A stretch of 64,000 nucleotides of DNA from contig NZ_CP157522.1 in the NCBI RefSeq assembly GCF_049075655.1, positions 1,376,001-1,440,000 on the forward strand, written 5' to 3'. The notes under the pieces were generated by a model. The model was given only the letters and a program-made list of their open reading frames with translations, was not told the origin of the DNA and did not search any database. The DNA comes from Methanothermococcus sp. Ax23. GTDB taxonomy: Archaea > AGJL01 > Methanococci > Methanococcales > Methanococcaceae. A program made the translations under genes and the position numbers. Below, piece after piece: positions 13,724 through 31,473 of the stretch (position 1 is the first letter of the stretch; each line of letters opens with the position of its first letter).

Positions 13724-14768
13724 GAGGTTGTCGAATAATTGAATTAGTAAATTTATTTGGTATCATATGTTAATACTAATATCCTCATTAGTGTTAATAT
13801 GTTATGCACTATCGCTACTGCGATAGTGCTTTTACATCTGCTATCCGCCAACCTGTCATCTAATTTTAACCTGTTTTTAGTCTCCAGCCCTCCAAATATG
13901 GATTCTACTATCCCCCGAAGGCGATACCAATCCTTGTTAAACATGCTCTTAATGGTTTTTCTAACTTTGCTAATATGATACTTCCACTTGAATTCTTTTG
14001 TTTTAACTATTGGAGTGATATTGTGTTGTAGTAAATATTCAAACAATTCACAGCAATCATATCCTCCATCAGCCAGTAGATATTCATTATCTAAAAAATC
14101 AATCTGTTTAACCATTTCCAATAGGTTGGCACTATCGGAACTATAACCTCCGCCCCAACGGGCGGAGATTATTGGAATATATCCTTGTTCTGGATAGTAT
14201 GATGCTAGAACATGCAATTTATCATGCACCAATCGTTTAGTACGTTTCCCTCCGTGAATGCACTCATAGTATAACCTATTTATGGAAACTCCTGTTGAGT
14301 CTGCCATATATAGTTTGTTGGAGGGCTGAGTTAGTAGATTATCTATAATTACATATGTAAAAGTAAGTAAGGTAGATAACCACCAGGTATCTATTCGCTT
14401 GAATGCTTTACCGTATGTGGAATGGTCAATATGTTTGTTATGTAATGTATTTGAGAGTGTCTCTAAATCCCTTAAACTTAGTTTGTAGATATGTTTTAAT
14501 ATTAGAACTACCACATATTCATTATAGGGTAGGGCAGATACCCTACCAACCTTTCGTCCTTCGGTAGAAGGACGATTCAGCATGTTTGTAATGGATAAAA
14601 TCAACGTATAAGTAGTTCTTAGGTCGTATTTCTTATATCTAAGGTCGTATATTCTCCAGTATCCTTTTGTCTTAGGATTGGTCTTTTTCTTTTCTATTTT
14701 CTTTTTTATATTCCCCTTCATAACATGTATTATATGTTATTGATAATTTAATATTTTTCGACAACCTC
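13724..14768 (-). mobile_element. IS element (IS4/IS5-superfamily DDE), 1045 bp
   Basis: TIRs GAGGTTGTCGAA / TTCGACAACCTC; 9-bp TSD AATATAAAC at 13715-13723 and 14769-14777. Confidence 0.93.
13753..14721 (-). CDS. DDE transposase
   Basis: ADSTG, ADGGYD, Y.LRGIVESIFG motifs. Confidence 0.92.
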   Translation of the reverse strand: MKGNIKKKIEKKKTNPKTKGYWRIYDLRYKKYDLRTTYTLILSITNMLNRPSTEGRKVGRVSALPYNEYVVVLILKHIYKLSLRDLETLSNTLHNKHIDHSTYGKAFKRIDTWWLSTLLTFTYVIIDNLLTQPSNKLYMADSTGVSINRLYYECIHGGKRTKRLVHDKLHVLASYYPEQGYIPIISARWGGGYSSDSANLLEMVKQIDFLDNEYLLADGGYDCCELFEYLLQHNITPIVKTKEFKWKYHISKVRKTIKSMFNKDWYRLRGIVESIFGGLETKNRLKLDDRLADSRCKSTIAVAIVHNILTLMRILVLTYDTK

Positions 14769-15653
14769 AATATAAACAAAAAGATGATATCCCAAATAAT
14801 TGGAACCACTGCAAATAAATTGATAGATTTTGAATTGAATAATCGTTATAAGATTTTGGGAAAAGCGTTAGATATTGATGACGAATGGTTTGGAGACGCA
14901 CTATACCAATTGTTTGAAAAAAGTAAGGTTATCACTCATTTTTATACAACAAATTATGATGGAATTTTGGATATTATGTTAATGAGAAACAATGGACGAT
15001 ATTTAAGTGATGGTTTCGAGGCGTATAATAAGGTTGAAATAAAATTTGATAGCGAAGATGCCTGGAATGCATGCAAGTTTAATCTATCAAACTTCCTCAA
15101 GAGCCATAAAAACGACAATATAATTGCCCATTTGCACGGTTCATATAAATTTATCAACACTAAGAGTGGAAAAACTCGCAAACTTATAAAAACCAAGGAT
15201 GGTAATCATCCAATTGGATATTATCCAGTAATTGTATATAACAGTCCAATATTAAAATATGATTTAATTGAACAAATTGATGTCTTAAAGTGGTATTTTC
15301 TACATTTTAGGTTAAGTTTAGGGGAATGCTCAAAACTTGTAATTTGGGGAAATTCACTAAGAACCGACCCGCACATTGTAGATGCAATTTGTCAAAATTT
15401 TGATAAAGAAAAGCCATTATATATTATTGATATTAATCCAAAATCAGTAATAGAACGGCTACAAAATACATGTAAAAATAAAGGATTTGATAAATTCAAA
15501 AATATAAAAACTATCAATAATTTAGGATTTGATGAACCGCCGAAAACAAAAAAAGATTTATTTGAGTTGTTTAAGAAGTTAATCACTGATTGATGTTATC
15601 ATTGTTATGCATTGTTAAAGTTATACATTTTATAGTAAAAAATAAAATATCAC

Positions 15654-21598: not shown

Positions 21599-24500
21599 TT
21601 AAGGTTTTTCAACCTTTACTGCTTTTCCATCCTTCCATTCTACGAATATTGGTTCTGATGGAATGTCATCCAATGTTTTGAAGTATTCTACTGCTGCTTT
21701 TGTTCCCCATCTGTCAGAACCTGCTAATAATATTACCGTATGGCCGTTTATTATCTGTTTTTGAATTACTCCTTTATTTGCACCTGGGTAATCGTTGGTG
21801 ATTTTTACTTTGAATGTCCATGCGTATTTTTTAGCCAATGGGTTTGCCACAGGACCTCCAACTAAGATACAATCTTCGGTTATTTCCAATGATTTATTTA
21901 CTAATTCGGTGGTATTTTTAAGACATTTTGCTGATAGGTTGTTATCTATTTCTGAACCGATTATTAATTTTGCATTATGGACAATTTCTTTAATTTTCTC
22001 TGATTTGATGTCCTGTGCGACATCCAGATAGTTTATAGTCCCATGTCTAGAGCTTGATGATGTTGATATTGTGGTGGTTCCAGTAGTAGTTGGCAGTGTT
22101 GCAGCAAGTATAATATTTACTTCTGGGTCTTTGATTAAGGTTAGTTCCAACACTCCCTCAACAGGTATTCTATACCACCCGATCTTGCTGGTAATATCGT
22201 TTTCTTTCAAGGTTATATTTTCTGTTCCATTATTTACGATTATATTTTCAACATCCAAAGTTCCTATTGGGATTCTTATTATTGAAAATCCTTTTTTTGA
22301 GGTGTTTATTGCTTTGAATTTTATTGTAGATATTAATTTACTATTTTCTTTTTTAGCTTCTTCTTTTGTTATGTTTGTTATGTTAAATCCTTCATTTAGG
22401 ATTGGTTTAATCTCTGACAATATATTATCAAGTGTTTTATTCATCTCGTTTTCATCGTTAATTTTAGTGTTTTTAAGTTCGATGGCTTTCTGCATCACTT
22501 CTTTTAAAGTTTCAATATGTTCTCCAGTAAAGTTTATTGATATATTTTCAAGATGAGGTATCTCAATGCTGTCATTTTTTACAGGAATTACTGTAATATT
22601 AAGGTCATTTCCAGATATTACTTTTATATTATCCAAATCAACGTTCTTCAATGCCTCGGAGTCCATATTAATATTTTTCAATGCTTCTTTTAATTCTTCC
22701 CCCATAATTGTGTTGTTTATAAATATTTTCTTAAATATATAGCCTTCACAATCTGACAATACTGCATGTTTTAGTATTGCTGAATAGGTATCATTTTCAT
22801 TAATAACTTTGAATGTTACATTTCCAAGGTTAAATGTTCCAGATTTTGTGAAGTTATAACCACTTATAAATAGGCTGCCATTATTTACGCTCCAATTAAC
22901 TATGCCAATTCCACTTACATTTAAAATTTCGATATTTTTGAAGGTTATGTTAAAATCATAACCACTACAAGGTCTTTTAGAACTTATAGATTCTGCATCA
23001 ATGGATGCTACAATGGTTCCATTAGTTTCAGATATATTATATAATTTCAAATAAACAGGCACTTCAACAACTTTTATGTTTTTAACCAGTTTATTATCGC
23101 TTTCATTTTCTTCTTTGATAGAATTGGATTCATCAACCATTGTAACGATTGTATATGTTTTTGTGTCATCTGGTGTCCAGTTAAATGTTATTACTTTTGT
23201 TTCTCCAATATTTAATCCGCCTATTGTTTTTGTTCCCAAGTCATTTGAATCTATGTATAAATGGACATCAAACGACTTATTTGTTATATTCTGATGACCA
23301 TTGTTTGTTAATGTTATGTTTATTGTTGCCGGCATCCTATATATTGATGGATTTGAAATTTTCATGTCGATGATTTTAATGTTTGGTCCCTGAACTACAA
23401 CAGTTTTTGGATTGATAATTAGATTATTAAACTTGTATCCGTTTATGTCGGACACAACGACTCCATCTATCGCAATCTCTGAGTTTCCTACGTCCAATGC
23501 CTTAAAGGTTGCTCTTGCTATGGTTGTTGATGTGTTTATACTTCCATCCATTATACTGAATATGACCTTTCCATCTTCAAATGTTGTGTTTTTAAGTCCT
23601 TCTGACGAGTTTATTAAGAATGTGAAATTTGTGCATTCCAATATTTTTGAATCATAGGTTAAAACTCCGTCAATGCCTTTTGCAGGCCTATCTGCGGTAA
23701 TATTATTTAATGATATATCTACTGTAAATGTTTCGCCTGTTTTTGTTAAATTTATTGATGGGATTAAATTTAATGCGATAGGTTCTTCAACTGATTCAGC
23801 TGTTTTTGTGTATTGGTTATTATTTTCATTAGTTTCTTTTATTTCCCCATTTGAATCAACTACTGCAACAATTGTATAGTTTTTATTTTCTGTCGGCATG
23901 AATGTGAAGTTTATGGTTTTTGTTTCACCCACATTTAATCCTGAGATAGTTTTTGTTCCAAGGTCTTGGGCATCAATATACAATGCCACTGAAAAATTAT
24001 TTGAAACGTTTCTTTCGCCGATATTTTTAATTACAATTGGTATTGTATTCTCTTGATATGATTTTAAGTTTAATACTAAAATATCATTAATTGTTAAATC
24101 TGACCCAGGAATAATTATTTTGGTAATATCTGAACTTTTAATGACACTGTAATTTTCATTATCTTTGATAGTAACATCCTTCAACTGAGTTGTAGCATTT
24201 CCAACATTTATTATATTATAAGTAATATTTACTGTGAAATTTGTTGATTTATTAAGGTTCTCTATTTTAAAGAGGTCATTTGAAGTATTAAACGAAACAA
24301 CTCCTGCATTTGATGATATACCAACTGGTGTCATTATTGATTTATCGTAGCTCAGCGTTCCACTAATTTCACTTAGGGTTTCATTTTCTTTTGGAGATAT
24401 GATTATTGGAACAGTTATATTCTCTCCGAGCTCTCCACTTACAGTCGTAGGAGTTATTATATCTGCTATTGGTTTTAATAGTATTGTTATGTTTGAATTT

Positions 24501-24937
24501 TTTAAAGTTATGTAATATTTTACCCCATTGGCATCAGATACAGAAGTTTGAGTTAAATCTACTGAATCATTTCCATCCTTTAACGCCTTAAATGATAATG
24601 TTGCTACTGTGAAGTTACCATAGGGTTCATTAGACATCCACAATAAACTTATTTTTCCAGACGAAACATCGATATCCTTCAAACCAGCATTATTTGCAAT
24701 ATCACTTAACGTAATGTTCGTTAAATTCAAAATACTTGAATCATAAGATATAGTAGTTTCAAATCCACCACATTTTGTATCAGCAGGGACATTTTTTACA
24801 ACTAAATCTAAGTTGAATGTATCTCCAACATAGGCATTTATATTGTCGGGGGCTAATCCTACGGATACATTTTCTGCATAACACACTCCCAACAAAGAAA
24901 TCATCAAAACCGAGAGTGTAAATAACTTCCATTTCAT
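21599..24937 (-). CDS. Secreted scaffoldin-like protein: ~4 cohesin-like domains, 2 CARDB domains, Thr/Ser linker, S-layer-type C-terminal domain
   Basis: Signal peptide; cohesin patterns (GDTF.LDL.V.NV...GFE..ISYD.SIL...ATLSFKAL); CARDB (N.G...VD....I.E.NE.NN); ILVGGPVANPL...LAGSDRWGTKAA tail. Confidence 0.85.
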   Translation of the reverse strand: MKWKLFTLSVLMISLLGVCYAENVSVGLAPDNINAYVGDTFNLDLVVKNVPADTKCGGFETTISYDSSILNLTNITLSDIANNAGLKDIDVSSGKISLLWMSNEPYGNFTVATLSFKALKDGNDSVDLTQTSVSDANGVKYYITLKNSNITILLKPIADIITPTTVSGELGENITVPIIISPKENETLSEISGTLSYDKSIMTPVGISSNAGVVSFNTSNDLFKIENLNKSTNFTVNITYNIINVGNATTQLKDVTIKDNENYSVIKSSDITKIIIPGSDLTINDILVLNLKSYQENTIPIVIKNIGERNVSNNFSVALYIDAQDLGTKTISGLNVGETKTINFTFMPTENKNYTIVAVVDSNGEIKETNENNNQYTKTAESVEEPIALNLIPSINLTKTGETFTVDISLNNITADRPAKGIDGVLTYDSKILECTNFTFLINSSEGLKNTTFEDGKVIFSIMDGSINTSTTIARATFKALDVGNSEIAIDGVVVSDINGYKFNNLIINPKTVVVQGPNIKIIDMKISNPSIYRMPATINITLTNNGHQNITNKSFDVHLYIDSNDLGTKTIGGLNIGETKVITFNWTPDDTKTYTIVTMVDESNSIKEENESDNKLVKNIKVVEVPVYLKLYNISETNGTIVASIDAESISSKRPCSGYDFNITFKNIEILNVSGIGIVNWSVNNGSLFISGYNFTKSGTFNLGNVTFKVINENDTYSAILKHAVLSDCEGYIFKKIFINNTIMGEELKEALKNINMDSEALKNVDLDNIKVISGNDLNITVIPVKNDSIEIPHLENISINFTGEHIETLKEVMQKAIELKNTKINDENEMNKTLDNILSEIKPILNEGFNITNITKEEAKKENSKLISTIKFKAINTSKKGFSIIRIPIGTLDVENIIVNNGTENITLKENDITSKIGWYRIPVEGVLELTLIKDPEVNIILAATLPTTTGTTTISTSSSSRHGTINYLDVAQDIKSEKIKEIVHNAKLIIGSEIDNNLSAKCLKNTTELVNKSLEITEDCILVGGPVANPLAKKYAWTFKVKITNDYPGANKGVIQKQIINGHTVILLAGSDRWGTKAAVEYFKTLDDIPSEPIFVEWKDGKAVKVEKP
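24482..24874 (-). repeat. 393-bp cohesin-coding repeat, copy A (inverted relative to 27992-28384)
   Basis: Direct nucleotide comparison, including a 164-bp identical tract. Confidence 0.95.
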
Positions 24938-24975
24938 GATGTATCACCCAAAAAATCAAAAAATAATTAATTAAT

Positions 24976-26337
24976 TCAATTTGCAGTATATGCTGTTGCT
25001 GTTCCCGTATCTGGGTCATATTTAAGGAAGTAATGTGTAGTTCTTCCGCTGAATGCATCTGGGTGTATGATTGTTCCCAAATCCATCAACACCTGGTCAG
25101 TATTCATAAGTCCGAGTTGCCAGTAATCTTCACTTATACAGAATAATTTACCATTTTGAACTGATTTAAATGTGTCATATCCGGGATGGTCATCTTTGAA
25201 GTTTGATAGCCAGTTTGTATTTGATGGCACGACCCAAATATCAGCATTTTTTGCTCTCTCTGCAAATGTTTCATAGTCAATCTTTGCACTGCCTGTTCCA
25301 GGATAATCGCTAAATATATAATCCCCATGGCAGTCATCCATTATTCCCTTAGCTACATAGGATTGAGCCTTAGGCACATAGGTTCCACCATAGGATGGGT
25401 AATTTTTACCCCATGCAACTAGAACAGGTTCTTTACCTCTTGTTAATCTTCTAACATTTAATGCCTTCTTTTCAACCTTTGTGAAGTATTTGCTTGCCAC
25501 ATCCTCTTTGTTGTAAAATGCGGCAAACATCTTAACCCATTCACATCTTGAGATATATGAGTCTTCTAAATATTCTGCATCCGCAATATAGGTAATATTC
25601 AAATCTTTACATTTTGCAATAATGGCATCTCCACTGTATCCAGGATAAACGAATACAGCCTGTGGAGATATGTTTATTATTTTGTCATAGTTTGGACTGT
25701 ATGATGAACCAACATCAACTATGGAGCCGTTATCAAGCCCCTGTTTAATATCGTCGAAATACCACGTGTAGCTTCCGCCCCACATGATTCCTTTAACTGA
25801 ATCAATTACTGAACCGTCATTGTTCAATGGCTCCATTAATGCTATCTGTGTAGAGCTCATCACAACGACATTTGTTAATGGAACATCTAGGATTTTATCA
25901 TACTTTCCATCCGCCCAGGTTGGTATGGATTGAGATGCATTTTTTAATAAGAATTTCTGCCCTGTGGCATCTTCAACTATTTTATAGGAGTATGCATCGC
26001 CGTTGTATGGATTTACTTCATTTCCATTTTCGTCATAGTAAGTAATTTTTATGTCTTTGGCGTAGTGAATAGGTTCTCTCATTTTATCATAGTTTTTGAA
26101 GAGATAAACTACATCTGCAATATCTATTGAATTATCAGCGTTTAAATCTCCATCTTCAAGGTCGAGATTTCTATTTTTGAAGAGATAAACTACATCTGCA
26201 ATATCTATTGAACCATCTGCATTTACATCGCCTAATCTATGGTTGTAATCCCCATCTGCGAATGTTGGGGAAATACATATTAATAAAGATAATACACTAA
26301 GTATTATCATGGGATGAGTATTTATATTTTTCGACAT
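24976..26337 (-). CDS. Dockerin-bearing ABC-type solute-binding protein (Fe-chelate/cobalamin class)
   Basis: Signal peptide, duplicated EF-hand-like GD.N.D.SIDIADVVYL, BtuF/FepB-like body (R.EWVK.FAAF, DLGTIIHP). Confidence 0.87.
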   Translation of the reverse strand: MSKNINTHPMIILSVLSLLICISPTFADGDYNHRLGDVNADGSIDIADVVYLFKNRNLDLEDGDLNADNSIDIADVVYLFKNYDKMREPIHYAKDIKITYYDENGNEVNPYNGDAYSYKIVEDATGQKFLLKNASQSIPTWADGKYDKILDVPLTNVVVMSSTQIALMEPLNNDGSVIDSVKGIMWGGSYTWYFDDIKQGLDNGSIVDVGSSYSPNYDKIINISPQAVFVYPGYSGDAIIAKCKDLNITYIADAEYLEDSYISRCEWVKMFAAFYNKEDVASKYFTKVEKKALNVRRLTRGKEPVLVAWGKNYPSYGGTYVPKAQSYVAKGIMDDCHGDYIFSDYPGTGSAKIDYETFAERAKNADIWVVPSNTNWLSNFKDDHPGYDTFKSVQNGKLFCISEDYWQLGLMNTDQVLMDLGTIIHPDAFSGRTTHYFLKYDPDTGTATAYTAN

Positions 26338-26495
26338 ATTACATCACCCAAAAAGTTTTTAAAGTAATATTCTAATCATATATTGTATTTTATTTAATAT
26401 TATACAAGAAAAGTTTAAAAAAATTCATAATATTTATATATTACGGTTTAATTTATAATATATAAACATATGTTTAATATACTAAAAAATATTAT

Positions 26496-27068
26496 ATGAG
26501 TGGCGATATTATGAAAAAAACTGTATTTTTTATTACCATATTCCTTCTATCAATCCCAATAGTATTGGCAGATGATGTAAATCTAAATGTAGATATGCCC
26601 AACAAGGTTAGTAAAGGAGATAATTTTACCATTAATATAGATGTTAATTTAAAAAATAAGGACATATTAGGTTTTGAATGCACAGTGAAAATTCCTATCG
26701 AAAAAGTTGATGATATAAAAATAACAGGCATTGCAGGAAATGAAGAACTAAAAAAAGAAGCAGGGAAATTTTACGAAATTAAAAAGAAAGATTCATCAGT
26801 ATCTATAAGATTTACCACTTTTGGAAAGCCATTAAATTCAGATTTTCATTTAATGACTATAAATGCAACAGCTTTAAAAGAAGGTAATGTGACATTTACA
26901 TTTAAATCGATAGCATCTGATGAAAATGGACATAGGATTCCAGTTGATAAAAAAACTACCGATTTGATAATAGTTGATAACAACAAAACAGTTGAATCCG
27001 ATGAAAATTTTTTATTATCAATAATTGATGCCATAACGAATTTTTTAAAATCCATACTTGGTGGTTAA
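26496..27068 (+). CDS. Single cohesin-like exported protein with C-terminal amphipathic/anchor helix
   Basis: Signal peptide; V.KGDNFTINI.V...ILGFE...ALKEG...ASDENG. Confidence 0.75.
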   Translation: MSGDIMKKTVFFITIFLLSIPIVLADDVNLNVDMPNKVSKGDNFTINIDVNLKNKDILGFECTVKIPIEKVDDIKITGIAGNEELKKEAGKFYEIKKKDSSVSIRFTTFGKPLNSDFHLMTINATALKEGNVTFTFKSIASDENGHRIPVDKKTTDLIIVDNNKTVESDENFLLSIIDAITNFLKSILGG

Positions 27069-27938
27069 ATGAAAATAAATAAATTATTAATTATACCTAT
27101 TTTTTTGATATTATTTACTGAAAATTTTGCATTGGATGATATCATTGTGAAATTAACCCCTGATAACATAGAAACTAATGGAGATTTGGTAAATTTTAAT
27201 ATTACAGTTGAAAATATACCTCCAAAGGAAAGTTTAGGCATGCCATCATCATATAGTGACTCAGAAATAAAAGACGGTGGATGTCAAGGCGTGGATATTT
27301 GTATAAATTATTCGAAGGATTATCTAAGCCCCATTGGATTTAATTGGAGCGATAAGTGTAAGGATGTTAAAATAAAGGAATATAAATTCGAAGATGGAAT
27401 TTTTTATTTATCCATAATGTTTGATGAGATAATATATGATAATACCATAAACCTCGGGACAATAACCTTTAACCCCATAAAAAAAGGAGAAACTAACTTG
27501 AATGTTAGTGGTAAGGTGAGCTCCGAATGGGGCGTTAAATATGATAGTGATAATATGTATTGGCGTAACTATGGTGAAACATCACAATATAAAGAGCCTT
27601 ATCCTAACACTAAATTTTATGGCGCCACAGTAAATATTAAGGAAATAGGAAATTACACAGGTTCTGCTAATTTAAATGGAGAATTGAATGACAATATAGT
27701 TTCATCATCTTCGTCTTCATCGACAATAATTAACAATGTAAATGTAATCACAAACCAAAGTGTGCCTGAAATTATTGTAAAGGAAATAAATATTTCAGAG
27801 GAGAAGCCGAATATAACGGTTATAATAAACACTGATGGAAAAAATGGTTTAGATTATAATTTATTAGCGTCTATTTTTGTTGGAGGTATTTTTTCAGGAA
27901 TTACATTTGGATTATTATTTAGAAGGATGATACCATGA
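27069..27938 (+). CDS. Cohesin-like exported protein with Ser-rich linker and C-terminal TM helix
   Basis: FNITVENIP..GCQGVDI.INY...LGTITF...KGET; poly-Ser; terminal TM helix followed by RR. Confidence 0.75.
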   Translation: MKINKLLIIPIFLILFTENFALDDIIVKLTPDNIETNGDLVNFNITVENIPPKESLGMPSSYSDSEIKDGGCQGVDICINYSKDYLSPIGFNWSDKCKDVKIKEYKFEDGIFYLSIMFDEIIYDNTINLGTITFNPIKKGETNLNVSGKVSSEWGVKYDSDNMYWRNYGETSQYKEPYPNTKFYGATVNIKEIGNYTGSANLNGELNDNIVSSSSSSSTIINNVNVITNQSVPEIIVKEINISEEKPNITVIINTDGKNGLDYNLLASIFVGGIFSGITFGLLFRRMIP

Positions 27939-30016
27939 AATACATAATTTTATTTTTATCCTTTTTTGTTTTTCTATCAGGAGTATGTGGTGAAAATGTA
28001 TCCGTAGAATTGACCCCAGAGAGTATAAATGCCTATGTTGGAGATACCTTTAATTTAGATTTAGTTGTAAAAAATGTCCCTGCTGATACAAAATGTGGTG
28101 GATTTGAAACTACTATATCTTATGATTCAAGTATTTTGAATTTAACGAACATTACGTTAAGTGGTACATCCAATACTGCAAATTTAAAAACAGTAGATGT
28201 TTCATCTGGAAAAATAAGTCTATTGTGGATGTCTAATGAACCCTATGGTAACTTCACAGTAGCAACATTATCATTTAAGGCGTTAAAGGATGGAAATGAT
28301 TCAGTAGATTTAACTCAAACTTCTGTATCTGATGCCAATGGGGTAAAATATTACATAACTTTAAAAAATTCAAACATAACAATAAATCCATTAAACCAGA
28401 CCTTAGGAACCATTACATTAAAAGATTTTGACCTGAATAAAAATATTGATGCAGTTTTATCCATAACTGGGGCAAAAACTCCTATAAAGAATATTTCAGG
28501 TAGCATTTCATTTAAAAATATAACAATAGAAAACAGCCCTACCCTAATGGACATATTTTGTAATAATTTCAGCTATACCATATATAATAACAATATTTCA
28601 TTTTTTATCATTCCAAATGAAAAGGATGAGAATAAAACCATATTCAATCTTTTAAAAATACCAGTAAATGTCAATAATGCTAACTATAACATTTCAATGA
28701 ATTTAACGATAAATGGAGAGCAGATTAAGAACATAACAATAAAAACAGAAGAAGAACAGGAAAATATCTCAGAGTATAAGGGATTAATGTTCTACGTAGA
28801 TTCTGGATACAATGAAGAAACAAATATCTCAATAGGCTACTCAAAAGAAATTAAGTTAAAAGTATGCAATATTGACAAAAATTTGACAAATTTTTCAGGA
28901 TATCTCTTCATAAATAATTCATTATTTGATGTTTCAGATTATGGAATTTCAGAATATTCTGACATATATGATAGAATAAACACTTCAAATATTACCTTTA
29001 ATAACAGCTACCTGTATTTCAACATTTCACTAATAAACGGAACAAATGGGACATTTAGTATTTTAAAGTTTAAATTGTCTCCAAAGATTAATGAAAATAT
29101 TTCTTCAATAATATATCTTGAAAATCTATCTATATACGCAAATGATACAAAAATAAACTTATCAGTTAAAAATTTAACAGTAAATATTGTAAAGAGGGAA
29201 TCCAATAATCCACCAAAATTAAAAATAGCCTACAAAATAGTTAATAACAAAGAAGTGCATTTTTATGCCTTAGGTTATGATGAGGATAACGACGATTTAA
29301 AATATGTATGGGATTTTGGAGATGGGAAAAACTCAACAGAGGAAAATCCAATTCATATATATTCAAATTATTCAATATATAAAATAAGATGTATTGTTAA
29401 TGACCCATTAAATGGAACAGACGAAGTGGAAGGAATTATCTCCATTAAAAATATTAATCCAGTAAATTATACAATTTCCAATGATTCCTTCATGCTGGAC
29501 AAGGAAAATGAAAATAAAACCATTTATTTAAATATAACCTTAAAAAATCCATTAAATTATAAAGTTGATGGGTATATCAATTTTATGGATTACGGAAATA
29601 ATTATCATCCGCCAAAAACCCAGTATCACATTATATTAAATCCAAATGGAACAAAAAATCTTATTATTCCAATAAATGTGTCAAAATCATGCAAAATTAA
29701 ATGGAATGTTGTTTATTATCCAAATATACGAAATAACGCAAACAGCAAAATAGATATCATATTCTATCAGTGGGATTTTGAAAAAAAGATAGAATTTAAA
29801 TCCAAACCACCGATGGTAATAAACAATTATACAAAAGTCATAAACTTCAACAATACAAAGGTAATATTGAAGGTAAATAAAGTTGAGACCGTTAGGAACT
29901 ATGTTATAAACAAAACCATAACAACTACAAGTCAAAACTCTATACCATACTATTCATTTGCGTTATTATTTGGATTTATAGTGGGAGTAATATTAATTAG
30001 ATTTAAAATTAAATAA
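27935..30016 (+). CDS. Membrane-anchored multi-cohesin/PKD protein
   Basis: First domain nearly identical to cohesin 1 of 21599-24937; PKD motif YVWDFGDG...NP.H.Y; C-terminal TM helix. Confidence 0.85.
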   Translation: MKYIILFLSFFVFLSGVCGENVSVELTPESINAYVGDTFNLDLVVKNVPADTKCGGFETTISYDSSILNLTNITLSGTSNTANLKTVDVSSGKISLLWMSNEPYGNFTVATLSFKALKDGNDSVDLTQTSVSDANGVKYYITLKNSNITINPLNQTLGTITLKDFDLNKNIDAVLSITGAKTPIKNISGSISFKNITIENSPTLMDIFCNNFSYTIYNNNISFFIIPNEKDENKTIFNLLKIPVNVNNANYNISMNLTINGEQIKNITIKTEEEQENISEYKGLMFYVDSGYNEETNISIGYSKEIKLKVCNIDKNLTNFSGYLFINNSLFDVSDYGISEYSDIYDRINTSNITFNNSYLYFNISLINGTNGTFSILKFKLSPKINENISSIIYLENLSIYANDTKINLSVKNLTVNIVKRESNNPPKLKIAYKIVNNKEVHFYALGYDEDNDDLKYVWDFGDGKNSTEENPIHIYSNYSIYKIRCIVNDPLNGTDEVEGIISIKNINPVNYTISNDSFMLDKENENKTIYLNITLKNPLNYKVDGYINFMDYGNNYHPPKTQYHIILNPNGTKNLIIPINVSKSCKIKWNVVYYPNIRNNANSKIDIIFYQWDFEKKIEFKSKPPMVINNYTKVINFNNTKVILKVNKVETVRNYVINKTITTTSQNSIPYYSFALLFGFIVGVILIRFKIK
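27992..28384 (+). repeat. 393-bp cohesin-coding repeat, copy B
   Basis: Reverse complement of 24482-24874 apart from one divergent patch and scattered changes near the 5' end. Confidence 0.95.
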
Positions 30017-30207
30017 TTATTTTTTAATATTTTTTATACATACTCAAATATTAATTAAATAAAAATAATTTTTTTAATATATTTAATACCAGTTTAATAA
30101 TTATTTAAAATTGAATGGTAAATTTTAAATACTATTTTAATTACTATAATATTACTATAATATAAATATTTAATTAATTATTACCAATTAGATAAAAAGG
30201 TGTTATT

Positions 30208-31473
30208 ATGAAGAGAATATTAATACTCTCTATTTTGACATTAATATCGCTGATTCCCGCAACAATGGGAGCAGAAATAGGAGATGTAAATAACGATGGT
30301 TCAATAGATATTGCAGATGTGGTTTATCTGTTCAAGAACAGAAACCTTGACCTTGAAGATGGAGATTTGAACTGCGATAATTCCATAGATATTGCAGATG
30401 TGGTTTATCTCTTCAAAAACTACGATACATTTAGAAGTCCAGTTGTATTTGCTAAAACATTTAAATTAGAGCCGCACTGGGATGAAGGATATTGTTATAT
30501 GGAAGATTCAAAAGGATACAAATTTGTTTTATTAAAAGAAGGTGCAACACCACCAAATATTCCTGATGCAAAGGTAATCACAACACCAGTGAAAAGCATA
30601 GATACTATATTTTACTGCCCAATTGTTTCAACAGCTGATGTATTAAACGATTCCTCATGCTATGATACAATAAAAGGAGTTCCGAGCTCCGTCTTGAAAT
30701 ATTCATCGGAGCTCACAAAAAGATACGACGAAGGTAAGGTTGCAAATATTGGTACATCATCCAGTATGAATTATGAAGTAGTAGTTAATACAACTCCTGA
30801 TATTGTATTCTTAGGAGATTGGTCGTCCCATGACACAATGGAAGCTAAATTGAAAGAATTGGGAATTACTGTATCAAGGTTCTACACATATGATGAACCA
30901 ACATTCTTAGGAAGGATAGAGTGGGTGAAATATGCCGCTGCCTTCTGGGGAGAAGACAAATACAACAAAACAAACGATTACTTCCAAAGTGCATGGAAGA
31001 AGAAGAACGAGTTGTTAAGGACAACAAGAAACGCAAAAGACTACCCAAAAGTTGTTAATTTCTGGAAATATAGCGATACAAGCACGCCAAGTATTCCACA
31101 GGCTCAAAATTTTTACAGTAAGTTAATAAATGATTTCAGAGGAGATTATGCATTTAATGACATACCTGGAACAGGTTCTGAAAAATTAGATACTGAAACA
31201 TTTATGGAAAGGGCAACGAATGCTGATGTTGTCATATTAAGACAGTGTAGTGATATAAAAACAAAAGAAGACTTATTGGCTAAATATCCAACATCAGGCT
31301 TTGAAAACTTCAATGCGTATAAAAATGGAAGATTCTATGTTTCAAAACCTGATTATTATATATGGGAAGCAAAAGACCCGATTGGATATATGGAGGACTA
31401 TGCCAAGATGGTTCATCCAGAATTATTCCCTAATGGAGATAGTGATTTAAAATACTACATTAAGCTTCAATAA
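30208..31473 (+). CDS. Second dockerin-bearing ABC-type solute-binding protein
   Basis: Near-identical dockerin (GDVNNDGSIDIADVVYLFKN...); EPT.LGRIEWVK, MEDYAKMVHPELF. Confidence 0.87.
   Translation: MKRILILSILTLISLIPATMGAEIGDVNNDGSIDIADVVYLFKNRNLDLEDGDLNCDNSIDIADVVYLFKNYDTFRSPVVFAKTFKLEPHWDEGYCYMEDSKGYKFVLLKEGATPPNIPDAKVITTPVKSIDTIFYCPIVSTADVLNDSSCYDTIKGVPSSVLKYSSELTKRYDEGKVANIGTSSSMNYEVVVNTTPDIVFLGDWSSHDTMEAKLKELGITVSRFYTYDEPTFLGRIEWVKYAAAFWGEDKYNKTNDYFQSAWKKKNELLRTTRNAKDYPKVVNFWKYSDTSTPSIPQAQNFYSKLINDFRGDYAFNDIPGTGSEKLDTETFMERATNADVVILRQCSDIKTKEDLLAKYPTSGFENFNAYKNGRFYVSKPDYYIWEAKDPIGYMEDYAKMVHPELFPNGDSDLKYYIKLQ

Follow-up and report, generated by a model that had tools for sequence, protein, structure and literature searches.

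Six contiguous genes for exported proteins, at positions 21599-31473 of a 64,000-nucleotide stretch of the Methanothermococcus sp. Ax23 genome (contig NZ_CP157522.1, positions 1,376,001 to 1,440,000; hereafter the window), encode four cohesin carriers and two dockerin-tagged binding proteins, A and B. The six genes are best read as the surface half of a conserved Methanococcales gene cluster for one FecCD-type (class III, chelate-type) ATP-binding cassette (ABC) importer, in which a cohesin-dockerin tether would replace the lipid anchor of the importer's two binding proteins, a reading to which we assign a probability of roughly 0.7. Like Gram-positive bacteria, archaea that have only an S-layer need a tether for their binding proteins, and for this reason we read the system as a probable non-covalent tether that offers several docking sites in the space from the membrane to the S-layer. 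According to the proposed mechanism, A and B would be exported via ordinary signal peptides with the dockerin first, and the dockerins would bind, probably in a calcium-dependent manner, the cohesins of the four neighbouring carriers, three of which are predicted to be held by a C-terminal helix and one by an S-layer-type module. The tether would then keep A and B between the membrane and the S-layer, doing the job of a lipid anchor, and the tethered proteins would hand their ligand to an importer made of FecCD1, FecCD2 and an ATPase. A preliminary description of the window had claimed six contiguous exported-protein genes with cohesin, dockerin and CARDB modules, an S-layer-type C-terminus and BtuF/FepB-class binding proteins; all six open reading frames (ORFs) are present at these positions, and all of the module calls hold.

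Both binding proteins consist of a signal peptide, a dockerin at the mature N-terminus and a binding body, which matches the Pfam family Peripla_BP_2 (PF01497, cut-off 27.5 bits) with 70.5 bits in A and 56.7 bits in B. By eye, their N-termini look like ordinary signal peptides. Downstream of the signal peptide, a sequence scan revealed neither a lipobox nor a transmembrane helix, and the earlier picture of dockerin-first binding proteins lacking both anchors held on inspection. The dockerin is built from two near-identical segments with an 81-nt spacing and 83-90% DNA identity, each carrying the calcium-loop pattern D-x-N-x-D-G-x-I-D-x-x-D (DVNADGSIDIAD and DLNADNSIDIAD in protein A), and no loop residue varies among 15 modules. 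This organization is that of type I dockerins, which comprise two segments of ~22 residues with a calcium loop followed by a helix. When a profile of the 15 dockerin modules was compared with the PDB, the top 14 matches were all dockerin-bearing chains (best E-value 2.6e-5, range to 0.03), and the orthologues P0014 and P0022 carry a precomputed call for the Pfam dockerin family PF00404. Outside the Methanococcales, the nearest relatives of these dockerins are bacterial, including Ruminococcus flavefaciens and Acetivibrio, with identities of 51% or less.

A custom dockerin hidden Markov model (HMM) run over 13,709 six-frame ORFs of the genome gave four matches with E-values below 1e-20, the next one being at 0.045. 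Two of the four are A and B, and the remaining pair are fragments of a B-type binding protein that lack a start, so that no intact dockerin protein besides A and B was found in this genome. Across the order, dockerin matches fall in frames of 411-475 residues or in fragments, except for one frame of 549 and one of 631 residues. Pfam scans of the six proteins revealed no glycoside hydrolase or carbohydrate-binding module (CBM) family, and both dockerin proteins are Peripla_BP_2 members, as expected from the earlier proposal that the cargo is not a glycoside hydrolase. On these searches the chelate-type fold family appears established for A and B, and the ligand class was not narrowed further: a sequence search of the PDB with A produced only a weak match to an Fe-citrate binding protein (E-value 0.1), the ESM Atlas only generic Peripla_BP_2 clusters with no structure among them, and NCBIfam only sub-threshold matches.

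The largest of the cohesin carriers, a protein of 1112 residues referred to here as the scaffold, starts with a signal peptide and as a whole protein matches the Pfam models Cohesin (PF00963, cut-off 24.1 bits) with 52.5 bits, CARDB with 120.6 bits in two stretches and S_layer_C with 34.6 bits (49.9 bits for the cut-out piece), as well as the NCBIfam model TIGR01564 (S_layer_MJ) with 39.1 bits. The two CARDB domains and the S-layer-type C-terminus proposed earlier were thus recovered, and of the approximately four cohesin-like modules three pass the Pfam cut-off. The fourth, at residues 622-765, gave no Pfam match and was detected by BLAST only, aligning with the cohesin of the 693-residue protein (E-value 6e-8 in a database of the six proteins); the scaffolds of relatives show a detectable cohesin at this place, and the scaffold likely has four cohesins. 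The S-layer models align with the scaffold only through their C-terminal part (positions 102-172 of 177 in PF05124 and 499-565 of 571 in TIGR01564), and the full-length architecture of an S-layer protein was not found in the scaffold. Because the match is confined to the last ~70 profile positions, the scaffold is considered to borrow the C-terminal module of S-layer proteins and not to be an S-layer protein itself. The motif LIGGPV...PG...GVIQ...AG.DR.GT.AA is common to the scaffold, the S-layer protein of this genome (a 554-residue frame) and a 438-residue protein; the searched sections of the review PMC5744192 are silent on the role of the C-terminus of S-layer proteins.

The three other cohesin carriers (190, 289 and 693 residues) also begin with a signal peptide and have C-terminal candidate anchors of the kinds described earlier, which are hydrophobic helices in the two longer proteins and an amphipathic helix in the shortest one (mean hydropathy 0.93, moment 1.68). 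In Methanocaldococcus-type loci, the orthologues of the 190-residue protein have a true transmembrane helix followed by Lys residues. The stalks between cohesin and anchor comprise ~10 residues in the 190-residue protein, a disordered spacer of ~55 residues (206-261) in the 289-residue protein, and ~500 residues of beta-rich, Ig-like modules plus a PKD domain in the 693-residue protein, whose cohesin is N-terminal. The preliminary description had named generic Ig domains as the alternative to cohesins, and AlphaFold models of the two shorter proteins retrieve cohesins first from the PDB, which supports a cohesin fold for both. For the 190-residue model, ranks 1-13 of the matches listed are all cohesins, with a target template modelling (TM) score of up to 0.75, and integrin domains appear from rank 15 on; a sequence search of the PDB with this protein gave nothing relevant. 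For the 289-residue model, all matches listed are cohesins (target TM up to 0.77), and the predicted local distance difference test (pLDDT) score of its core is above 90. The Archaeoglobus fulgidus cohesin 2xdh was matched by both models, at rank 18 with a TM of 0.69 and at rank 15 with a TM of 0.77, respectively. Furthermore, the 190- and 289-residue family profiles both match the cohesins that Pfam recognizes in the scaffold and in the 693-residue protein, and Pfam-detectable cohesins occur in the genome only at this locus.

The position of the dockerin in A and B is informative when compared with related proteins. In an alignment of 23 homologues, 18 have a dockerin and five have Gly-Cys right after the signal peptide, including P0027 from Methanocaldococcus sp. 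FS406-22, P0030 from M. fervens and P0055 from Archaeoglobus veneficus. Six genomes without cohesin or dockerin keep orthologues of A with 64-66% identity, and lipobox-like N-termini (...[AS]GC or PGC) were present in all six A-type and all four B-type proteins fetched. The binding bodies of the lipobox-type orthologues share 62-65% identity with that of A and 46-55% with that of B. Since the orthologues without dockerin carry Gly-Cys there, the dockerin sits exactly where the predicted lipid anchor is found in the orthologues, and presumably it also holds the function of this anchor.

Four lipobox-type genomes show the gene order A - FecCD - FecCD - ATPase - B. The orthologous importer of Ax23 (G000:C1:744224-748023) comprises two FecCD genes and one ABC_tran gene according to Pfam; these genes are intact and 61-82% identical to the lipobox-type orthologues. 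No intact binding-protein gene adjoins them, only the two start-less B-type fragments mentioned above, and the third FecCD gene of the genome has an adjoining lipobox-type binding protein of its own. The partnership of Peripla_BP_2 proteins with FecCD and ATPase genes is seen in the orthologues, and in the window no importer genes adjoin A and B. In 10 of the 13 relatives' loci examined, the cohesin and dockerin genes have FecCD genes, the ATPase gene or both as direct neighbours, and in L019, from the closest relative examined, all six genes are present with FecCD1 and FecCD2 directly after B. Because of this arrangement in the relatives, the separation of locus and importer in Ax23 is taken to be a derived rearrangement, and the cohesin genes are considered to belong to the gene cluster of the importer.

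Cohesin genes are co-inherited with dockerin genes in the order Methanococcales. In 40 genomes, cohesins were called with the Pfam model or the 289- or 190-residue family profile, and dockerins with their own profile; both were present in 26 genomes and both absent in 11, with three discordant cases. Two of the latter are cohesin-only and belong to incomplete genomes, G030 (81% complete) and G031 (64% complete); in G031 the binding-protein gene is truncated by the contig start. The 13 relatives' loci were chosen from the 26 genomes with both modules for having their hits together on one contig. Cohesin and dockerin genes are contiguous in the Ax23 locus and in all 13, and in all of these the 190-residue cohesin gene is oriented head to head with A. 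The core, with the 693-, 289- and 190-type cohesin genes head to head with A and the scaffold, is found in 12 of the 13 loci, whereas the thirteenth (L028) has only the 190-type cohesin gene together with A and B. The scaffold architecture is alike in 12 of 13 relatives, with two to four cohesin-CARDB units.

The modules of this locus also resemble each other more than the proteins that carry them. A and B share 92% identity in the dockerin but 32% in the binding body, and the dockerin regions form a 158-nt inverted repeat with 87% complementarity. Across 11 genomes, the identity between the A and B dockerins averages 85% within a genome versus 63% between genomes, and in seven of the 11 the B dockerin that best matches A is that of the same genome. 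Likewise, scaffold cohesin 1 and the cohesin of the 693-residue protein share 122 of 142 residues and form a 393-nt inverted repeat (93% complementary), compared with 37% identity of the two proteins over the first ~590 residues, cohesin included. This likeness suggests gene conversion or joint selection for one specificity, and it fits a single dockerin type serving several docking sites. Overall, the earlier proposal that the cohesin proteins dock the binding proteins is backed by comparative sequence evidence of four kinds (co-occurrence, exchange with the lipobox, a gene cluster shared with the importer, and module homogenisation), and the synteny survey and genome-wide dockerin scan that it called for gave a cluster conserved in the loci examined and no further intact dockerin protein.

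Several observations weigh against the proposed tether. The dockerin module remains below the Pfam cut-off of 22.9 bits, with 19.0 bits when cut out and scores of 14.8 and 11.9 bits when the whole genome was searched, and the spacer between its segments has only ~5 residues, whereas canonical dockerins have a longer one. The Pfam Cohesin model matches none of the relatives in the 190-residue (0/9) and 289-residue (0/18) families, nor the two window proteins, and the cohesin membership of these families leans on AlphaFold models with a mean pLDDT of 73 and 74.5, respectively. The importer lies ~650 kb away from the locus in this genome. The third discordant genome, G018 (99% complete), has a dockerin-tagged B-type protein after an ATPase gene and no cohesin detectable by the three profiles; no FecCD gene was seen in 19 kb of its sequence (G018:C1:432000-451000, L032), where ORFs of at least 110 residues were read by eye without a domain scan. 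Finally, the absences of cohesin and dockerin fall in three genera and therefore represent several events, but as the genomes are related, the division into 26 and 11 genomes may come from only about three independent ones.

The very different stalk lengths of the four carriers, one of which has an S-layer-type module, could also be explained by a height-graded ladder. Here the scaffold would gather binding proteins at the lattice pores, and the dockerin would be passed from cohesin to cohesin down to the 190-residue cohesin beside the permease, so that loaded binding proteins or their ligand move from the S-layer to the permease. A two-fold symmetric dockerin would permit such a hand-over; the high DNA identity of its two segments is compatible with two equivalent binding faces, and the first cohesin is near-identical on the scaffold and on the membrane-anchored 693-residue protein. 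Nevertheless, there was no sign of exchange between cohesins, a single tier can suffice (as in L028), and cohesin-dockerin bonds are known from cellulosomes as tight and not fast-exchanging, and we regard the ladder as unlikely. A relay of ligand between tiers and an outward display on the S-layer surface are speculation. If true, the ladder would be an archaeal protein-scaffolded counterpart of the nutrient relays that run from the outer envelope to the membrane.

A slightly less probable explanation is that the cohesin proteins serve the envelope or adhesion, while the dockerin-like module, without engaging these proteins, acts as a calcium-binding stabiliser or as a tag that binds the S-layer. 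CARDB and PKD domains are typical of archaeal surface and adhesion proteins according to section 3.5 of PMC5244752, the dockerins of A and B also show weak EF-hand matches, and G018 has its tagged binding protein with no detectable cohesin. This explanation is at odds with cohesins and dockerins that come and go together (shared by 26 of 40 genomes and both missing from 11) and are encoded by contiguous genes at every locus compared, with the location of the dockerin at the lipid-anchor site of the orthologues, and with a genome that offers the cohesins no other dockerin protein. Less probable than either is that A and B, their genes having parted from the importer, no longer take part in transport here and are surface receptors or sensors or are being lost, a scenario that could draw on the distance to the importer and the degraded B-type copies beside it. 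Against this scenario, neither the A nor the B gene is disrupted (93% and 85% identity to named orthologues, respectively), the importer genes are intact as well, and L019 has the six genes directly followed by FecCD1 and FecCD2. Contigs from RNA libraries (three RNA-seq runs of one sample) of a ~90%-identical relative also span all six genes, but they carry no expression level and may stem from DNA carry-over, and we give them little weight. A cohesin-dockerin tether for the two binding proteins of one importer is the reading that we prefer.

Features of the locus (positions in the window)
Feature	Position	Strand	Basis or remark
Scaffold, 1112 aa	21599..24937	-	Pfam, NCBIfam, BLAST; cohesin modules of 44.1 and 34.3 bits in genome search
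Scaffold S-layer-protein C-terminal module	21602-21937	-	residues 1005-1112, S_layer_C 49.9 bits
Scaffold stalk with Thr/Ser-rich linker	21938-22657	-	
Scaffold cohesin-like 4	22658-23065	-	residues 622-765, BLAST
Scaffold CARDB 2	23081-23374	-	Pfam
Scaffold cohesin 3	23444-23746	-	residues 380-510 cut out, Cohesin 36.3 bits
Scaffold CARDB 1	23804-24103	-	Pfam
Scaffold cohesin 2	24197-24454	-	residues 156-278 cut out, Cohesin 25.0 bits
Scaffold cohesin 1	24473-24874	-	Pfam 44.1 bits
Binding protein A, 453 aa	24976..26337	-	signal peptide + dockerin + Peripla_BP_2
Protein A Peripla_BP_2 body	25015-26073	-	
Protein A dockerin	26086-26235	-	duplicated segment
Divergent intergenic region, 158 bp	26338..26495	.	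between binding protein A and 190-aa cohesin genes
Single-cohesin protein, 190 aa	26496..27068	+	AlphaFold model, cohesin fold
190-aa protein cohesin fold	~26577-26975	+	model
190-aa protein conserved C-terminal amphipathic helix	27003-27059	+	
Single-cohesin protein, 289 aa	27069..27938	+	AlphaFold model, cohesin fold
289-aa protein cohesin fold with insertions	~27138-27668	+	model
289-aa protein C-terminal transmembrane helix	27855-27929	+	residues 263-287
Cohesin protein, 693 aa	27935..30016	+	Pfam Cohesin + PKD
693-aa protein cohesin	27992-28384	+	42 bits when cut out
693-aa protein PKD	29237-29419	+	Pfam
693-aa protein C-terminal transmembrane helix	~29939-30004	+	
Binding protein B, 421 aa	30208..31473	+	signal peptide + dockerin + Peripla_BP_2
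Protein B dockerin	30277-30426	+	duplicated segment
Protein B Peripla_BP_2 body	30439-31470	+	

The genome of Ax23, a thermophilic methanogen, has 1.67 Mb with a G+C content of ~30%, and the closest named proteins are those of Methanothermococcus thermolithotrophicus (93% identity for A). The six ORFs are flanked by housekeeping genes, with an ArcS-like DUF5591/PUA protein, SpoIIM and PgpA on one flank and an HD-domain protein and FEN1 on the other. A is the first gene transcribed on the minus strand, and the scaffold gene lies 38 bp downstream of it; on the plus strand, the 190-, 289- and 693-residue genes, the first of which starts 158 bp from A, abut or overlap, and B starts 191 bp past the last of them. 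The divergent intergenic region between A and the 190-residue cohesin gene contains a TATA-like stretch and a conserved TTACGG core. A TATATATTACGGT-like stretch of this region is conserved in relatives, TTACGG or near variants being recognizable in 10 of 13 such regions that were compared, and it is read as a promoter. A TATATATTACGGTTTA-like stretch is kept on the cohesin side of the same region. The 22-nt form of the intergenic stretch occurs once in the genome, and its interpretation as an operator shared with the importer was rejected, as near-matches are not located upstream of the importer genes. In the RNA-library assembly, the contigs of the related organism break within both dockerin-coding stretches (26116-26215 and 30292-30396 in window coordinates), and the loose contig ends at the two stretches are mutual reverse complements, as expected if the dockerin DNAs form a near-identical inverted repeat in the relative too.

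About 7 kb from the locus, the window contains a DDE transposase gene (38.8 bits) next to a gene with a weak SIR2_2 match (13753-14721 and 14784-15593); a mobile element near the locus fits a rearrangement that parted it from its importer. Beside the importer, at G000:C1:749043-755970 (L018:7543-14470), two copies of one start-less 5' B-type dockerin fragment are found, one in a 66-residue frame and one in a 549-residue frame with a partial Peripla_BP_2 match and a C-terminal extension of ~230 residues. They are separated by seven minus-strand ORFs of 139-246 residues without a Pfam match, and the region looks like a rearranged or cassette-like one. A NifH/frxC-family gene (396 bits) is located directly upstream of the importer ATPase on the same strand (L018:1683-2522, corresponding to G000:C1:743183-744022), and it is missing from the matching position in the lipobox-type locus L012. 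The importer ABC ATPase of 375-391 residues (L018:2743-3888; L012:5086-6219) has a conserved C-terminal extension of ~130 residues past ABC_tran with no family match. In another lipobox-type locus, L013 (G005:C1:795000-805500), the FecCD1 and ATPase orthologues are each represented by two adjoining frames, which could result from frameshifts or sequencing errors.

Like the bacterial cellulosome (3ul4, 4dh2, 1ohz), the Methanococcales system combines a multi-cohesin scaffold, single-cohesin anchoring proteins (as OlpA/OlpC) and a duplicated calcium-loop dockerin, and its best fold and profile matches are type I cohesins and type I dockerins, respectively. It differs in having no glycoside hydrolase or CBM, in an N-terminal dockerin on transport receptors, and in anchoring by predicted transmembrane helices and an archaeal S-layer module instead of SLH domains or sortase; with binding proteins as the sole dockerin proteins, it does not belong to the cellulosomes. 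The cohesin fold is shared with Archaeoglobus fulgidus, where a non-cellulosomal cohesin and dockerin were reportedly described by Bayer in 1999 and by Haimovitz in 2008, as cited in PMC9012536. No transporter link is reported for that pair in the literature consulted, and the homologue from A. veneficus (P0055) has Gly-Cys and no dockerin. The lipid-anchored Methanocaldococcus orthologues (P0027, P0030) have orthologous binding bodies and orthologous FecCD1, FecCD2 and ATPase, but Gly-Cys in place of the dockerin and no cohesin genes. Another anchoring mode is found in the related haloarchaeal PGF-CTERM ABC binding proteins (TIGR04281), to which the match here is weak (E-value 2e-4, 20.6 bits versus a cut-off of 325), with no PGF-CTERM present.

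Archaeal cohesin-dockerin pairs appear in print as genome-annotation remarks (PMC9012536 section 32; PMC5244752 section 3.5). In the latter section, cohesin and dockerin domains are only counted (Timmers et al. 2017). In the former, ABC transporter binding components of the NikA/OppA and TroA types are listed as common dockerin proteins of anaerobic methanotrophic (ANME) archaea, scaffoldin-like proteins with several cohesins and dockerin proteins linked to the S-layer are mentioned as well, and binding is said to await experiments (Chadwick et al. 2022, PMC9012536). Thus, the docking idea is less new than the preliminary description assumed. As far as that section goes, the ANME and Methanococcales sets are alike in being archaeal and non-cellulolytic, in their ABC binding-component cargo, multi-cohesin proteins and S-layer link, and in being known from genomes and not from the bench. 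In contrast to the ANME sets, with NikA/OppA, TroA and many further dockerin proteins, the cargo here is confined to a pair of Peripla_BP_2 proteins serving a single importer, the dockerin sits at the N-terminus, and sister lineages offer a lipobox alternative; in ANME-2c the S-layer domains occur on some dockerin proteins, whereas here the S-layer-type module is on the cohesin scaffold. The bindosome of Sulfolobus, as far as described in the consulted part of Zolghadr et al. 2011 (PMC3047682), is likewise an assembly holding ABC binding proteins in contact with the S-layer, but it depends on class III signal peptides and the type IV pilus-like BasABCEF, unlike the ordinary signal peptides and the proposed cohesin-dockerin link here. 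By title or abstract start, no paper on the Methanococcales system was found, and surveys of non-cellulosomal modules may list it. The literature searched gives no account of the Methanococcales system, of a dockerin confined to both receptors of a single importer, of the lipobox alternative or of the scaffold with an S-layer module.

What cohesin-dockerin pairs do outside cellulosomes has been a standing question ever since the first ones turned up in Archaeoglobus, and the family presented here offers an unusually clean case, with one dockerin type, two cargo proteins, one importer and four cohesin carriers. It includes a natural control in the sister species, where lipid-anchored binding proteins serve this importer and cohesins are missing. 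Because the family occurs in cultured Methanococcales (named in the sources as Methanococcus vannielii, M. voltae, M. aeolicus, Methanothermococcus okinawensis and M. thermolithotrophicus), bench work is feasible, and archaeal cohesin-dockerin pairs would gain a testable job. If the proposed tether is true, it would represent a third, non-covalent way to retain binding proteins in cells without an outer membrane, and also a way to attach proteins to the archaeal S-layer.

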